DNA of 64,000 nucleotides from a phage. Position 1 is the first letter of the stretch, and each line of letters starts with the position of its first letter. Made by a program: the position numbers and the translations under genes. The notes under the pieces were generated by a model. That model was not told the DNA's origin, made no database searches, and was given only the letters and a program-made list of their open reading frames with translations. The DNA is taken from assembly GCA_016389475.1 (NCBI GenBank), contig GCA_016389475.1_3042.1; one strand, written 5' to 3'. This document shows positions 8,402 to 41,996 of the stretch, one piece after another.

Positions 8402-9721
8402 TCACACATAAAATACGTCATAACGACCACGGGTAACACCAACATAAAGAAGTTGTTGAGCTAGTTCAGCATCTGCATAATGAATACAAGGCGTATAAAT
8501 GAAAGCACGGTCTACAGACATACCCTGAGCTTTATGGAATGTTGATGCAGGAAGTGCTTTCACTTTACTGAACTGTGATTTAGCATCCCAAAAATCACTC
8601 CACGGAGCTTTTCCGCCTTTGTTCCAATTTTTATAAGTTTCTGCCGTTTTACCTAAAAATAGGTTAAACTTATATAACTCTTCATCAGATGAAATTATTT
8701 TAATCTTTTCACGATAATATTCATCATCACCGTAAGTTTCTACTGTTAAATCCCAATGACGAATTAGATATTCTCCAGGAACACCACGAGCTTTAACAAA
8801 CGTCGATGTATACTCTGCTTCTATAATACGAACTAATTGTCCGTTATTAAAAATAATTTCTGACACAGGCTTTCCATCAATTTTATATGTTTTAATTAAT
8901 GGTTCCTGCATTACAATAATTTCACCGACAATAAAATCTTTATCAGTTTCAAAAATCTTTTTACGAATAATGCTATTTAACTTGTCAACAGATTTATTCG
9001 TAAATGCCATTACGCGATTTTCAAACAAATCATCTAGAGATTTGACGATTGAAAAATAATTTACCATAAAATCGCGTAAAGCGGTATCACCAGTAAATCC
9101 ACGTACTCCATGCCCGTCAACAATTTTATCATAAATCCACTTACCGTTACGAACGTCAGTAGCTACATCAATAATAGGAGCATTACTGCGTTTAACTTCA
9201 GTAAGTTCACACTGATAAAAATCTTTGTGTGTAAAGAATGGACTGATATAAGCAGTATTTTCTCCTGGATCAACAGGTCTAATTTGCTTATTATCACCTA
9301 TTCCAATTATAGTACACCAAGGTGGAATAGTTGAAAGCAGAATTTTAAATAGCTTTCTATCATACATTGACACTTCGTCGCAGATTAATACCCTGCATTT
9401 AGCTAAATCTGGTACTTCCTTCTGTTCAAAAAGAACATTTTCTTCATATGTTACCGGGTTAATTTTAAGAATACTGTGAATAGTACTCGCTTCTTTCCCC
9501 GACAGTTTTGAAAGAATCTTTTTAGCTGCATGTGTAGGAGCTGCCAAAATGATACCAGTTTCGCCCGTAGATATTAAAGCTTCAATGATGAACTTAGTAA
9601 GAGTAGTCTTACCAGTACCAGCAGGTCCATTAATAGTTACATGATGTTTCTTTTCTTTAATAGCCCTCATAACGATGTTAAAGGCATTTTTCTGACCTTC
9701 GGTCAAATCATCAAATGTCAT
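8402..9721 (-). CDS. dda: Dda DNA helicase (SF1B)
   Basis: ORF track 439 aa; GPAGTGKTT Walker A; length equals T4 Dda. Confidence 0.95.
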   Translation of the reverse strand: MTFDDLTEGQKNAFNIVMRAIKEKKHHVTINGPAGTGKTTLTKFIIEALISTGETGIILAAPTHAAKKILSKLSGKEASTIHSILKINPVTYEENVLFEQKEVPDLAKCRVLICDEVSMYDRKLFKILLSTIPPWCTIIGIGDNKQIRPVDPGENTAYISPFFTHKDFYQCELTEVKRSNAPIIDVATDVRNGKWIYDKIVDGHGVRGFTGDTALRDFMVNYFSIVKSLDDLFENRVMAFTNKSVDKLNSIIRKKIFETDKDFIVGEIIVMQEPLIKTYKIDGKPVSEIIFNNGQLVRIIEAEYTSTFVKARGVPGEYLIRHWDLTVETYGDDEYYREKIKIISSDEELYKFNLFLGKTAETYKNWNKGGKAPWSDFWDAKSQFSKVKALPASTFHKAQGMSVDRAFIYTPCIHYADAELAQQLLYVGVTRGRYDVFYV

Positions 9722-10029
9722 CGTAAATTCCCTGCAATTGGTATACTAACAATACGCCCAGTATCTAAAATTCGCCGATATAATCTTTGTGTGTCTACAT
9801 CAGGCTTAACGTGTTTAACTTCTATTTTATTAAACCAAAACTTGCGTGGAGTTTCAACTAATCTTGGAATTCCCATACCTAAAGCTAGTCGATACTGCTC
9901 TTTAAGAGTGGTAAATACTCTATCAGCAATCTCCCTTTCAAAAAATACAGCAGGACGATGTTCATCAAGAGGAACAGGCACCGCAAATCCATCTTTATCT
10001 CTATACACTATCGCATATACATAAACCAT
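9718..10029 (-). CDS. dda.1-position protein (103 aa)
   Basis: ORF track; ATGA overlap with dda. Confidence 0.55.
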   Translation of the reverse strand: MVYVYAIVYRDKDGFAVPVPLDEHRPAVFFEREIADRVFTTLKEQYRLALGMGIPRLVETPRKFWFNKIEVKHVKPDVDTQRLYRRILDTGRIVSIPIAGNLR

Positions 10030-10030
10030 A

Positions 10031-10777
10031 TTATCCTCGGATAAGTTTAAAAATTGAACAATTTAGCGGGTATCCTCTTTTCAGTTTAAGTTTATCAATA
10101 AAAGACAAGTTTTGATACCGCTCTACACCTTGAATAATTTTATCACACATATCATATTGCATTTCTGCTTCTGACAACTTTTTCACAATTTTCCAATCCG
10201 AGCCTTTAAGAAGAACGTTCAGTTTAACAACTTCAGCGCCTTCTGCTATGCGAGAACCATCAATACGAGCTTTAAGTGCTATAATCGTTAGCTTAATGTC
10301 AGAGGTCTGTTTTGATTTAGAAAGCTGAGAAATGTGTTCAATTCGATTTTCACGTTTTTTCTGTATAGCTTTAATTTGATTATAAGTCTTTTTGATTTTA
10401 GCCCATTTCTTTTCATCTAAATTTAGTTTATGAACTTTTTTCGCAGATGAACGGCCAATTCGCAAAGCAAATAAATCACGCTTTTCAATCAACTCTTCTA
10501 AAGTATAATCAGAACGAAATGTATTATACTTTTTCTTTACTGCAATAACATTCCCTTTAATGTATCCAATGTTATTATCAAAACGTTCTAATGATAATTT
10601 CTCTCCTTCAATACGATTATCAAAAGGTTCTCCTGAATAGGCACAAACTTTTTGATCTAAAATGTTCTTAATGTAATTGAAGTCTAAGTTAAAATCTTTA
10701 GAACGTCTTTTTGCAGATGCCTGAGTGTGCTCTAAACGACGTTTAATTTTACGAATTTGATTATTAGACAGTTTCAT
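10031..10777 (-). CDS. basic protein with degenerate HNH-like segment (248 aa), srd position
   Basis: ORF track; CAYSGEPF...SLERFDNNIGYIKGNV resembles C-x-Y-C-G...DRIDN-x-KGY-x-x-NV motif of phage HNH endonucleases but lacks second Cys pair; lies between dda.1 and modA. Confidence 0.55.
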   Translation of the reverse strand: MKLSNNQIRKIKRRLEHTQASAKRRSKDFNLDFNYIKNILDQKVCAYSGEPFDNRIEGEKLSLERFDNNIGYIKGNVIAVKKKYNTFRSDYTLEELIEKRDLFALRIGRSSAKKVHKLNLDEKKWAKIKKTYNQIKAIQKKRENRIEHISQLSKSKQTSDIKLTIIALKARIDGSRIAEGAEVVKLNVLLKGSDWKIVKKLSEAEMQYDMCDKIIQGVERYQNLSFIDKLKLKRGYPLNCSIFKLIRG

Positions 10778-10812
10778 ATTTTTCTCACATCTTACGGACG
10801 ATTGACTACTAT

Positions 10813-10842
10813 ACTATAACATTTTTACCTTAGCTTGTAAAC
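10813..10842 (-). promoter_or_regulatory. T4-type early promoter
   Basis: gtaaac 10837-10842, actata (TATAGT) 10813-10818, 18-nt spacer. Confidence 0.55.
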
Positions 10843-10899
10843 AACTTTATGTAAAAATGCTTTAAAACTTTCATGGTATAATGAATCTAAGTCCTTCCA

Positions 10900-11502
10900 T
10901 TATAGATTAAATCTTTCAAAATCAAGAGTATAGATAGTGTATGTTGAATACTTTTTATACTCATATCTATCTGCAATTCTAAATACACTTCCAGCTGGTA
11001 TCATTACTTCTTGTTCATCTGAAACTAATTCCATATTACGATAACGATGACTATCCGGAAACTTAAAGTTTGGATTGTATTCTTTACAGCGTAGAGCTTT
11101 TATAGCATACTCCTGGAAATTGAATACCATAGGAGCTTTGAATTCAAAAATAACCTGTGTGTTATACTCTAAACCGGAAGCAAAATGTAGAGCTATATTT
11201 TTATCATATGAAGCTGATACTACTTTATCAAATGTAATAATATCAATTCCTTGATTTAACACTTGCTTAGTCTCGACTGGAACACCTCTCCAAAGAGGTT
11301 TATCGTTTGGTTCCAAACGAGATTTGATTATTTCATTTAACCAAGTATGGTCATCTGGTTTGTTGGTAATACAATGAATTAAAAGTTCAATTTCAGATAA
11401 ATTAAACCCTTCAGAAAGTAATTCTTCACGAATAGAAGCACGCACCGATGCATCCATTGATTTTATTTTAAAATCTTTTAGTTGCATTACTGAGTATTTC
11501 AT
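10900..11502 (-). CDS. modA: ADP-ribosyltransferase ModA
   Basis: ORF track 200 aa; R (LWRG), STS-like (VSAS) and EQE (EQEVMIP) ART motifs. Confidence 0.85.
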   Translation of the reverse strand: MKYSVMQLKDFKIKSMDASVRASIREELLSEGFNLSEIELLIHCITNKPDDHTWLNEIIKSRLEPNDKPLWRGVPVETKQVLNQGIDIITFDKVVSASYDKNIALHFASGLEYNTQVIFEFKAPMVFNFQEYAIKALRCKEYNPNFKFPDSHRYRNMELVSDEQEVMIPAGSVFRIADRYEYKKYSTYTIYTLDFERFNL

Positions 11503-12122
11503 TCAACTACCTCAATATCATAAACTTTAAATGTTCCAAATGAATCGTGTAATTTTTCTTTTGAAATAGAAGTTATTTTATACTTTCCAATTGGAATCAT
11601 CCATTCTTGTTCACGTACAATCATCATTAAGTTATCAGTACGTTCTGAATCTAATCCATCAGTATCTTCATATGTATACTTAAATTCAGTATTAGGAGAA
11701 GAAAGTATAATATCGCTGATATGGTCAGAATAATTAAAAGCTTTATCAGTTTTTAAGCGAAATATTATTTCAGTGAAATACTCAACATAAGAAAAACCAC
11801 ATGCTGTGTGCAAACTAGTAGTAAATGAATCTACTCTGTTCGTTGAAAACACTTCTCCAACTTGTAAATCTTTAATGAGTTCTTTTGTCGATTTTGATAT
11901 ACCACGATATAGCTGATAAGGCGATTTAGTTAAATGCTTTTTAACGATTTTATTCAACTGCCGATGAAGAGCTTCATTCTTTTTGGCTTCCATACATTGC
12001 CAAAGAACAGACTGCTCAAAGTCAGTAAATTTTTCACAGACTTTTTTATACATATCATATTGAAAATCAACGCTTTCAGCTTTTATAGATAACTGTTCAA
12101 CATCTGCAAGATTAATAATCAT
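11499..12122 (-). CDS. modB: ADP-ribosyltransferase ModB
   Basis: ORF track 207 aa; LYRG, FTTS, EQEWMIP motifs; paralog of modA. Confidence 0.85.
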   Translation of the reverse strand: MIINLADVEQLSIKAESVDFQYDMYKKVCEKFTDFEQSVLWQCMEAKKNEALHRQLNKIVKKHLTKSPYQLYRGISKSTKELIKDLQVGEVFSTNRVDSFTTSLHTACGFSYVEYFTEIIFRLKTDKAFNYSDHISDIILSSPNTEFKYTYEDTDGLDSERTDNLMMIVREQEWMIPIGKYKITSISKEKLHDSFGTFKVYDIEVVE

Positions 12123-12148
12123 GATAGCCTCCGTATACTTCAGAAGCT

Positions 12149-12178
12149 ATCATATCATTGTTAGAAAGGAAAGTAAAC
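12149..12178 (-). promoter_or_regulatory. T4-type early promoter
   Basis: gtaaac 12173-12178, atcata (TATGAT) 12149-12154. Confidence 0.55.
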
Positions 12179-12189
12179 AACTTTTTGAA

Positions 12190-12372
12190 TTATTTTGCCC
12201 AGGGAGCCCAAGGCGGAGGGTCAAGATGGTATGAAGCTAGTTCTTCTAGAAGAGCATCTGGGGCTTCAATTCCATAATTCTGTAATACTATACGGTATTC
12301 TTTCTTATAATCACTAGAATCATTCCGGATATTCGTAGAATGATTATCTTCTAACATCTCAAATAAATCCAT
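12190..12372 (-). CDS. hypothetical protein (60 aa)
   Basis: ORF track; ATG start. Confidence 0.45.
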   Translation of the reverse strand: MDLFEMLEDNHSTNIRNDSSDYKKEYRIVLQNYGIEAPDALLEELASYHLDPPPWAPWAK

Positions 12373-12380
12373 ACTAATTC

Positions 12381-12851
12381 CTAGCGATAAAAACCAAATT
12401 GACGATTAGCTTCAATAATCTTTCTTTCTTCTTCGGACATTCTCCAGCGTAGTCCAACATCAAAATGAGCCCAGACCATCTTAACAAATGCATTTATATC
12501 TTTAATATCTTCAATAATGAATGTTTTACTTTTAGAAGGTTGGCTTGCTAATTTAACCTTATCATCTTCAAACAAATCAAAAAGGCTATATTCATGAGCT
12601 CTTTTATAACCTTTAATTATTAAAGCTTCAGAAGAAGAAAATGGAGAATCAGTATTATGTAGAATATCTTCAGTATGCTTTATCATTAGAATAACATTTT
12701 CTGGATATTTTCTTTCTTTTATATCTTTAATTAAAAAATCCGGATTTTCTGCTAAAGGAATAATTAATGAGCATTTTTTATCAAGTGTATTTACTGATTT
12801 ACCTTCTTTAGACATAAATTCTATTGAATAGAATTTTGCTACTTCAATCAT
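12381..12851 (-). CDS. hypothetical protein (156 aa)
   Basis: ORF track. Confidence 0.55.
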
Positions 12852-39712: not shown

Positions 39713-41526
39713 TGGTGTTTAACCCTATGCATGATTTCTTTATTTTTACCGAGATTAAATCCGCGCTCGTTCGGATTTCCCAAATAACCACATGTTCTTC
39801 TTATGGTATTCATCTTTTTAGGATCAGTTTCTCCACAAATAGAACAAACAAATCCGTTTTCAGTAGGAGTCATTTCATGGGTACTTCCACACGTAAAACA
39901 TTTATCTACCGGCATATTAACACCAAAATAATCTAAATGTTGTGCAGCATAATCCCACACGGCCTCAAGACCTTTTAGGTTATTTTTCATATCAGGAAGT
40001 TCAACATAAGAAATGTGACCACCTGTCGCAATGAAATGATATGGCGCTTCACGAGAAATCTTTTCAAACGGAGTAACATTTTCTTCTACTGAAACGTGGA
40101 AACTGTTAGTGTACCAACCTTTATCAGTAACATCCTTTACACTTCCATATTTTTCTGTATCAAGTTTACAGAAGCGATAGCAAAGGTTTTCAGCAGGAGT
40201 AGAATACAAGCTAAAAGCAAACCCAGTTCTTTCAGTCCACTGTTTAAGATGAGCATTCATTTTAGTTAAAATTTCCTGTCCAATATCACGACCGATAAGA
40301 ATATTCAATTCGTGAATACCAATGTATCCTAAAGACACTGAACTTCTACCGTTTTTAAATAACTCAATTATGTCGTCATCAGGTTTAAGACGAACCCCGA
40401 ATGCACCTTCTTGGTAAAGAATAGGAGCAACAGTCGCTTTAACTCCTTTTAAGGAACTAATTCTGCACATCAAAGCTTCAAAACATAAATCCATTCGTTC
40501 ATTGAACAATTCGATAAATTTCTGTTCATTGAACTGTGTTCCAATATAAGAATCTAACGCGATGCGAGGAAGATTCAGTGTTACAACACCAAGATTATTA
40601 CGTCCATCAAGAATTTCATTGCCAGTCGAATCTTTCCATACGCTCAAGAAACTACGACAACCCATTGGAGAAACAGGAATAGATGAGCCGGTGATAGCTT
40701 TATTGTTCTTAGCTGAAATAATATCAGGATACATTCTTTTGCTTGCGCACTCTAGAGCAAGCTGTTTAATATCATAGTTCGGATCGTCTTTATAAAGATT
40801 AACACCTTCTTCAACGAACATAACAAGCTTAGGGAAAATAGGAGTTATCCCATCACGACCAAGACCTTTAATACGATTTTTCAGAATTGCTTTCTGAATC
40901 ATTCGTTCAGTCCAGTCAGTTCCCGTACCAAATGTAATTGTTACAAAAGGCGTTTGTCCGTTTGAACTAAAGAGAGTATTTACTTCATATTCATAAGCTT
41001 GGAATGCATCGTATACGTCTTTTTCTGTTTTAGATTGAGCATAATTCAACGCATCAGCGATTTGCCATTTTTCTGCATCCTCAATATGTTTTGCATAGGT
41101 GCGTTTAACATAAGGAGAAAGTACTTTATCTACATTAGCAAAAGTCGTTCCGCCGTATTGATGGGAAGCAACCTGTGCAGTAATTTGTGCCATAATTGCA
41201 GTAGCAACACCGATTGATTTAGGAGTTTCAATCTGTGCATTACCAAGCTTAAATCCATTCTCAAGCATTCCTTTTAAATCTACTAAACAACAATTAGTAA
41301 ATGGAAGAGCAGGGGAATAATCAATATCATGGAAATGGATAATTCCGCTTTCATGCGCTTTCATAATAAAAGACGGGACCATATTTTTGGCAATGTGTTT
41401 AGACACAATACCAGCCATAAGGTCCCGTTGAGTTGGAAAAACACGAGAATCTTTATTAGCATTCTCGTTTAAAAGGTCTTTATTAGTTTTATGAATCAAT
41501 CCTTCAATTTCTTTTTCAATTGTCAT
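39709..41526 (-). CDS. nrdD: anaerobic ribonucleoside-triphosphate reductase, uninterrupted
   Basis: ORF track 605 aa; single continuous ORF, no intron-like interruption. Confidence 0.9.
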   Translation of the reverse strand: MTIEKEIEGLIHKTNKDLLNENANKDSRVFPTQRDLMAGIVSKHIAKNMVPSFIMKAHESGIIHFHDIDYSPALPFTNCCLVDLKGMLENGFKLGNAQIETPKSIGVATAIMAQITAQVASHQYGGTTFANVDKVLSPYVKRTYAKHIEDAEKWQIADALNYAQSKTEKDVYDAFQAYEYEVNTLFSSNGQTPFVTITFGTGTDWTERMIQKAILKNRIKGLGRDGITPIFPKLVMFVEEGVNLYKDDPNYDIKQLALECASKRMYPDIISAKNNKAITGSSIPVSPMGCRSFLSVWKDSTGNEILDGRNNLGVVTLNLPRIALDSYIGTQFNEQKFIELFNERMDLCFEALMCRISSLKGVKATVAPILYQEGAFGVRLKPDDDIIELFKNGRSSVSLGYIGIHELNILIGRDIGQEILTKMNAHLKQWTERTGFAFSLYSTPAENLCYRFCKLDTEKYGSVKDVTDKGWYTNSFHVSVEENVTPFEKISREAPYHFIATGGHISYVELPDMKNNLKGLEAVWDYAAQHLDYFGVNMPVDKCFTCGSTHEMTPTENGFVCSICGETDPKKMNTIRRTCGYLGNPNERGFNLGKNKEIMHRVKHQ

Positions 41527-41996
41527 TTTAAACTCTTTCTAAGCTGCTTCTTAAATGAAGCTATTAATTGTGTTTTAGTGTCAGATTCATTATATTCAAA
41601 TCCTCTTTGAAGCATCTCAGCCATCATTTCCTCTTTTCCTAAACGAGAAAATTCCTTTGATTTATCTCCAACAAAGTTAGGGTGAATATTATTTTGGGTG
41701 TAATCGGATTTTAAATAAGTAAGTAAATTTTCTAACCATTCAAGATAATCAACACCTTGCCCCTTTAAGCCAGAACGATTAAATTTATGCTTCATTTGAC
41801 CTTCTGCGGCATTGCAGAGATTACAAAGCAATCCACGCACCTTTCCTGCTTTTGGTCCATTTAATTCATGGTCATGATCAAGATGATTAGCTTGAACATC
41901 AGGATTTAGTTCTCGTTGGCAAATTAAGCATTTACCATTTTGTGCATCATAAAATTTCTGTTTTTCTTCTTTGTATAATTTGCCAGTCAATAACAT
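41523..41996 (-). CDS. 49: recombination endonuclease VII (Holliday junction resolvase)
   Basis: ORF track 157 aa; CLICQ...HLDHDHELNG zinc/His motif. Confidence 0.9.
   Translation of the reverse strand: MLLTGKLYKEEKQKFYDAQNGKCLICQRELNPDVQANHLDHDHELNGPKAGKVRGLLCNLCNAAEGQMKHKFNRSGLKGQGVDYLEWLENLLTYLKSDYTQNNIHPNFVGDKSKEFSRLGKEEMMAEMLQRGFEYNESDTKTQLIASFKKQLRKSLK

Follow-up and report, generated by a model that had tools for sequence, protein, structure and literature searches.

The srd gene of T4-type phages raises a question of identity: does its product, catalogued as an anti-sigma factor and known for its role with host RNase E, carry a domain derived from an HNH endonuclease, and what might such a domain be doing there? 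We addressed this question in a 64,000-nucleotide stretch of phage DNA (contig GCA_016389475.1_3042.1 of assembly GCA_016389475.1, hereafter the window), in which a first-pass annotation had described a degenerate HNH-like motif in a protein at the srd position. The open reading frame (ORF) concerned lies at 10031-10777 on the minus strand, with its stop codon at 10031-10033 according to the ORF list, and encodes 248 amino acids with a computed mass of 29 kDa and an isoelectric point of 9.95. We identify it as the Srd of a T4-type phage because PHROG 1400 ("Srd anti-sigma factor") matches it with an E value of 3.6e-108 over residues 4 to 248 of 248, because its residues 1 to 110 are 99.1% identical to T4 srd, and because the minus-strand order dda (8402-9721), dda.1 (9718-10029), srd (10031-10777), modA (10900-11502) and modB (11499-12122) is conserved, with srd kept between dda/dda.1 and modA/modB. 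The same order is annotated in the near-identical phage ECML-363, where the gene has the same coordinates and the label "putative anti-sigma factor / Srd"; the ORF is also 98% identical to protein cluster P0005. Bases 9000-12500 are 98 to 99% identical to many Escherichia and Shigella T4-like phages, and this part of the window can be assigned to the early region of a Tequatrovirus (T4-type) genome. Srd and its RNase E role are already known, and a few GenBank records (H47, PQ657815; H58, MN662249) label Srd homologues "HNH endonuclease"; in our literature searches, no paper was found linking Srd with an HNH or His-Me fold.

The HNH-like motif and the fold of the N-terminal domain

The two strings on which the comparison with HNH endonucleases had been based could both be located, CAYSGEPF at residues 45 to 52 (nucleotides 10622-10645) and SLERFDNNIGYIKGNV at residues 62 to 77 (nucleotides 10547-10594). 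They belong to the minus-strand segment 10508-10648, which translates to VCAYSGEPFDNRIEGEKLSLERFDNNIGYIKGNVIAVKKKYNTFRSD, and the motif has the layout C45-AYS...S62-LERFDNNIGYIKGNV...N85. Written as the pattern C..[CST]x(8-25)[DE]R.[DN]xxxGYxxxNx(8)N, it turns up a single time when the window is translated in all six frames and never in 100 shuffles, and a profile of the domain family recovers srd among the ORFs of the window with an E value of 6.5e-38, the next ORF being found at 0.099. Given this single occurrence, the empty shuffles and the gap in the profile search, we consider the match to be beyond chance and the motif real. The description of what the motif has lost was also accurate, but slightly understated: K81 and Y84 are found where the second cysteine pair should be and R65 where the usual His is expected, while the first "CxxC" is itself already reduced to C45-A-Y-S48. 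Residues 1 to 105 have just a single Cys and a single His, too few for a Cys4 or Cys3His site.

Scanning Srd against Pfam and NCBIfam yielded nothing meaningful, with no HNH-type Pfam model (HNH, HNH_3, Endonuclease_7) at an E value of ≤10, and a single-sequence phmmer search against the PDB gave no match. The PHROGs database returned secondary matches over residues 4 to 158, named "endonuclease" (E value of 1.3e-18), "HNH endonuclease" (1.4e-16), "decoy of host sigma70" (6e-13) and "endonuclease VII" (2.4e-7). A single-sequence AlphaFold prediction of Srd (predicted local distance difference test [pLDDT] of 61) rendered the N-terminal domain wrongly as all helical and was not used for it. The model used here, of residues 1 to 110, was built by AlphaFold (AF2) with an 82-sequence alignment of the domain (A2) and reached a pLDDT of 92.6, all five models being above 90. 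It has helices at residues 5 to 24 and 33 to 40, a small hairpin near C45, strands at 61 to 65 and 77 to 81 with an 11-residue loop between them, and helices at 82 to 90 and 93 to 109; DSSP assigns the two strands and the 82-to-90 helix to the same residues. The parts of the domain are as follows:

10463-10777, minus strand: N-terminal domain (residues 1 to 105), a predicted zinc-less His-Me finger of the PacI-like subgroup (HNH superfamily)
10658-10765, minus strand: two N-terminal helices (residues 5 to 24 and 33 to 40), ahead of the finger and matching the helical segment before the PacI core
10622-10648, minus strand: vestigial zinc-knuckle hairpin V44-C45-A-Y-S48-G-E-P-F52, with C45/S48 opposite PacI C63/C66 in the HMMER and hhalign alignments
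10508-10597, minus strand: beta-beta-alpha core (residues 61 to 90), from DSSP on the model and the alignment to PacI VDRSD..GY..N..C..CN

The core is made up of beta1 (L61-R65), an omega-loop (66 to 76) containing G71-Y72, beta2 (V77-K81) and a helix (K82-D90) containing N85. In the model, E64-R65 closes beta1 in the position of the Asp-His pair, Y72 belongs to the omega-loop, N76 opens beta2 and N85 falls within the first turn of helix 82 to 90, with K81 and Y84 at the place of the former second CxxC. The helical segment ahead of the core is basic and carries the invariant residues S21, A22, R25, F29 and L31. The model identifies residues 1 to 105 as a genuine His-Me finger of the HNH superfamily, with beta-beta-alpha-Me topology. 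The beta-hairpin, omega-loop and alpha-helix of the superfamily are all present, and the fold resembles HNH nucleases of solved structure, together with the structural Asn (N76) and the Asn of the metal position (N85); the absent trait is the catalytic His at the end of beta1.

The best match of the A2 family profile in the PDB was the restriction enzyme PacI, with an E value of 0.09 that is not significant alone. A profile made from 201 copies of the domain outside Srd matched PacI residues 31 to 120 with an E value of 9e-4 at a PDB-sized search, and hhalign of the family against PacI gave a probability of 69% and an E value of 4.4e-5; a profile restricted to the Srd clade gave no match. One register is common to all three PacI alignments, with C63/C66 of PacI paired with C45/S48 of Srd, D92-R93 with E64-R65, G99-Y100 with G71-Y72, N104 with N76, C109/C112 with K81/Y84, and N113 with N85, and with Y72 facing the sole Tyr of the PacI omega-loop (the G-Y one). 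Structure prediction and profile alignment, both of which had been suggested as checks on the motif, thus detect an HNH-like fold, the similarity being backed by hhalign to PacI, and we place residues 1 to 105, as far as sequence and model allow, in the PacI-like subgroup of His-Me fingers.

This placement changes the meaning of the missing His. PacI belongs to "group 20" of the His-Me fingers, which are mostly viral, lack the catalytic His and use an omega-loop Tyr as its substitute (Jablonska et al. 2017). The PacI subgroup has Arg at the usual position of the catalytic His, and the single metal ion of PacI is bound by one Asp and one Asn. PacI-like HNH proteins are already a recognised category in phages. 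Since the nearest subgroup normally does without the His, its absence from Srd is no sign of inactivation. The idea of an inactivated and domesticated HNH domain is therefore supported as regards the HNH-derived fold but not as regards the inactivation, since the PacI subgroup is naturally without the His and Srd keeps the catalytic positions: E64 (Asp in PacI), R65 (Arg), Y72 (Tyr) and N85 (Asn), along with the structural N76. The missing residue would not by itself make the domain inactive, and neither "inactivated" nor "active" is demonstrated. What has truly been lost is the structural Cys4 zinc knuckle (C45/S48/K81/Y84), one of whose four former ligands, the first (C45), is left in the hairpin; the Srd finger is thus held together without zinc.

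Srd also differs from PacI (PDB 3LDY/3M7K). The two proteins are only 16% identical; PacI has two Cys4 zinc sites per subunit, whereas the Srd domain has a single Cys, and the Asp metal ligand of PacI is replaced, conservatively, by Glu (E64). PacI is a 142-amino-acid homodimeric DNA restriction enzyme, while Srd has an extra helical domain of 138 amino acids and is known for RNase E stimulation, not for DNA cutting. Canonical phage and bacterial HNH nucleases (Gme HNH 4H9D, McrA, Hpy99I, Cas9 HNH, GVE2 HNH) rely on His as the general base and in most cases on a CxxC...CxxC zinc site, both of which are absent from Srd. T4 endonuclease VII (gp49) and the Mob-type HNH homing endonucleases share the superfamily and the phage group of Srd, with no detectable sequence relationship, and a kinship to these enzymes is not supported. 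The endonuclease VII gp49 of the window (41523-41996, minus strand), taken as a negative control, gave an hhalign probability of 0.4%, and no other ORF of the window matched the Srd-domain profile as a second copy of the domain.

Conservation across the domain family

An exhaustive phmmer search with residues 1 to 110 against 1.84 billion representative proteins returned 2,174 relatives with an E value of ≤1e-3, and 82 at ≤1e-10. Ten distant relatives were scanned against Pfam, and none had a domain at an E value of ≤0.01. Conservation was assessed in 238 domain copies, comprising those of the best 150 proteins and the Srd homologues, with the consensus S-A-K-x-R...F-x-L...C-x-Y-S/T-G...S-L-D/E-R-I-D-N-x-x-G-Y-x-x-G-N-V...N-x-x-K/R. 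In this sample, N76 and N85 are invariant in all copies, and C45, R65, G71 and Y72 are conserved at 96 to 100% (C45 and Y72 at 98 to 100% of the family members sampled, where residue 65 is R in 97 to 100% and never H). Position 64 is always D or E, in about equal numbers among the relatives and E in 100% of the proteins with the Srd architecture. Position 48 holds S, T, L or F but in no case Cys, and the place of the second pair, 81 and 84, is taken mainly by S/C/A/K and F/A/Y, with K and Y in Srd. Each of C45, E64, R65, Y72, N76 and N85 is present in 100% of the 75 representatives with the Srd architecture. Srd homologues, with identities down to about 31%, retain 34 invariant columns, most of them within residues 21 to 96. 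Because the lost Cys and the lost His are common to every relative examined, they cannot be put down to a decay specific to Srd.

The architecture of the relatives is diverse. Approximately 75 of 176 representatives carry the C-terminal domain of Srd; the others have the finger at the C terminus or in two to four tandem copies. Such tandem copies are found in many larger proteins (P0039, P0058, P0060, P0061 and about 55 others), P0039 being a protein of 852 amino acids with copies at 151 to 223, 341 to 418, 544 to 630 and 737 to 816. An even number of copies would be in keeping with a single-chain form of the PacI homodimer. At least some relatives are eukaryotic: P0216 belongs to Prorocentrum cordatum, a dinoflagellate, and P0204 stems from a set of eukaryote proteins. 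The gene context of distant relatives in Vibrio phage VBP47 and Acinetobacter phage phiAB441 consisted only of small hypothetical genes of the early region, with no signal for a nuclease versus a regulator.

The C-terminal domain and the srd locus

The remainder of the gene and its surroundings contain the following features:

10034-10447, minus strand: C-terminal helical domain (residues 111 to 248), from the single-sequence AF2 model and local jackhmmer
10031-10777, minus strand: srd gene, 248 amino acids plus stop, from the ORF list, PHROG 1400 and the ECML-363 annotation
10813-10841, minus strand: promoter-like TTTACA-17 nt-TATAGT with TG ahead of the -10 hexamer, from a consensus scan, about 35 nucleotides upstream of the srd start codon

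The C-terminal domain is predicted, in the low-confidence single-sequence model, to form helices at 122 to 154, 159 to 189 and 192 to 222 (pLDDT of about 80), and its middle part is very basic (isoelectric point of 10.5 for residues 106 to 200). In the local jackhmmer search, it was always located C-terminal to the finger, and it is specific to proteins with the Srd architecture. Its profile retrieved from the PDB only tropomyosin-like coiled-coil noise and a weak match to TrwJ (E value of 0.16), which we rejected as uninformative. The extreme C terminus (residues 226 to 248; 10034-10102, minus strand) has a conserved F-I-D-K-x-K-L-K-R-G-x-P-L in homologues that are otherwise divergent, and R220, G235 and P237 are invariant in the motif R220...K-L-K-R-G235-x-P237-L, a candidate short docking peptide.

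The genes around srd are tightly packed. There are overlaps of 4 nucleotides between dda.1 and dda (9718-9721) and between modB and modA (11499-11502), and one base separates the stop codon of srd (10031-10033) from the start codon of dda.1 (10027-10029), a packing of dda, dda.1, srd, modA and modB that suggests translational coupling. The promoter-like site, with its extended -10 TG, fits early expression of srd; promoter-like sites in the srd region are not more numerous than expected from shuffles, and the position of this one is its sole support. The labels of Srd homologues in GenBank (e.g., MK886800, MG751100, PQ657815 and MN662249) are inconsistent and include anti-sigma factor, anti-termination protein, HNH endonuclease, putative anti-sigma cofactor and hypothetical protein. 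None of them reflects the published RNase E function.

Possible roles of the finger in the stimulation of RNase E

According to papers that cite Qi et al. (2015), T4 Srd binds RNase E at its N-terminal, catalytic half, raises the activity of the enzyme on host mRNAs and speeds up their decay. With moderate confidence, we favor the view that Srd would act as an adaptor or activator of RNase E, in which the finger binds nucleic acid, the helical domain docks RNase E, and catalysis is not required. The former nuclease domain would supply a surface for binding nucleic acid or phosphate, centered on the old active site; the Lys patch K81-K83, in place of the former CxxC, would reinforce this surface in the Srd clade, and the clade-specific helical C-terminal domain would give the host-specific contact with RNase E. 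We infer this division of labor from the published RNase E binding and the anatomy of the two domains. The second suggestion of the first-pass annotation, a nucleic-acid-binding fold reused for regulation, remains the most plausible functional reading.

There are precedents for His-Me fingers in non-nucleolytic roles in the MH1 domain of SMAD (DNA binding in transcription) and the nuclease-like domain of ENPP (substrate binding), with no specific relationship to Srd detectable; these known inactivated fingers have lost their catalytic residues, whereas Srd keeps every PacI-type position. For the adaptor role itself, RapZ, the adaptor protein for RNase E, offers a functional analogy only: it attaches to the N-terminal, catalytic half of the enzyme and presents RNA, thereby promoting cleavage. 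RapZ and Srd are listed in the literature among the few proteins known to bind this half of the enzyme. The fold of RapZ is unrelated to that of Srd, and RapZ is specific for the small RNA GlmZ, while Srd accelerates the decay of host mRNA generally.

Several observations weigh against an adaptor with a reused PacI-like finger. Direct sequence similarity to PacI is weak (E value of 0.09; hhalign probability of 69%), and the C-terminal domain comes from a low-confidence single-sequence model. Lastly, the full conservation of the PacI-type catalytic positions is what would be expected of an active enzyme.

This last point leads to the possibility, which we regard as unlikely but as the main rival, that the N-terminal domain is an active Tyr-dependent nuclease of PacI type that cuts or nicks host RNA (or DNA) and leaves 5'-phosphate ends. 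Such monophosphorylated ends would feed the 5'-end-dependent pathway of RNase E, and part of the "stimulation" would come from catalysis by Srd itself. All the PacI catalytic positions (E64, R65, Y72 and N85) are kept and invariant, residues that inactivated His-Me fingers normally lose; relatives often have two or four tandem copies, fitting a single-chain PacI homodimer; and several database records name relatives HNH endonucleases, although these labels are predictions. On the other hand, the structural zinc site needed by PacI is gone, Asp has become Glu in all proteins with the Srd architecture, and no report of nuclease activity of Srd was found in the searchable literature. The effect is also said to depend on RNase E, Srd reportedly leaving mRNA stability unchanged in cells defective in RNase E and reportedly stimulating both 5'-end-dependent and -independent cleavage by the enzyme. 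Moreover, Srd physically binds RNase E. A bolder combination, rather doubtful in our estimation, is that Srd is a zinc-independent, Tyr-dependent His-Me finger nuclease tethered to RNase E, and that either its cuts or the presentation of RNA through the old active site switch RNase E onto host mRNAs.

It is improbable that the HNH-derived domain is a pure protein-protein module that docks the catalytic half of RNase E without touching nucleic acid, its residues being kept for folding or contact. The reported binding of Srd to the N-terminal half would agree with such a module, as would the N-terminal domain being by far the best-conserved part of Srd, with most invariant columns in residues 21 to 96, and N76 and Y72 could be structural. 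However, the same residues are equally invariant in relatives without the Srd C-terminal domain, including the tandem-repeat and dinoflagellate proteins, which are unlikely to target an enterobacterial RNase E, and what sets the Srd clade apart is its C-terminal domain, which makes this domain the likelier host-specific interface.

We give very little credence to the notion that Srd is a mimic of sigma-70 or an anti-sigma factor ("similarity with rpoD") in which the HNH-like motif is incidental. The name is borne by PHROG 1400 and most GenBank records, but no Sigma70 Pfam domain was found at an E value of ≤10, the C-terminal domain gives only coiled-coil noise, the N-terminal domain is predicted to fold as an HNH finger, and RNase E stimulation is the only experimental function of Srd cited in the literature consulted. 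That the resemblance is a product of chance, with no HNH fold behind it, can be dismissed despite the empty Pfam, NCBIfam and single-sequence PDB searches and the lack of Foldseek matches in the PDB below an E value of 0.01, as it is refuted by the fold model, hhalign to PacI and the match of the non-Srd profile to PacI.

Srd is among the very few proteins known to bind and activate the catalytic half of RNase E, and "anti-sigma factor" is a misleading database name that finds no support here. A PacI-type fold with its catalytic positions intact and its zinc site gone makes specific residues testable, namely E64, R65, Y72, N85 and K81-K83, and the anatomy of Srd frames the question as an either/or, between an adaptor that presents RNA and a nuclease that generates entry sites. 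Should the tethered nuclease prove true, the domain family with the pattern C-x-Y-S/T-G ... S-L-D/E-R-I-D ... G-Y ... N ... N, which spans more than 2,000 representative clusters in phages, giant viruses and some eukaryotes, would amount to a class of PacI-type nucleases without zinc that has gone unrecognised.
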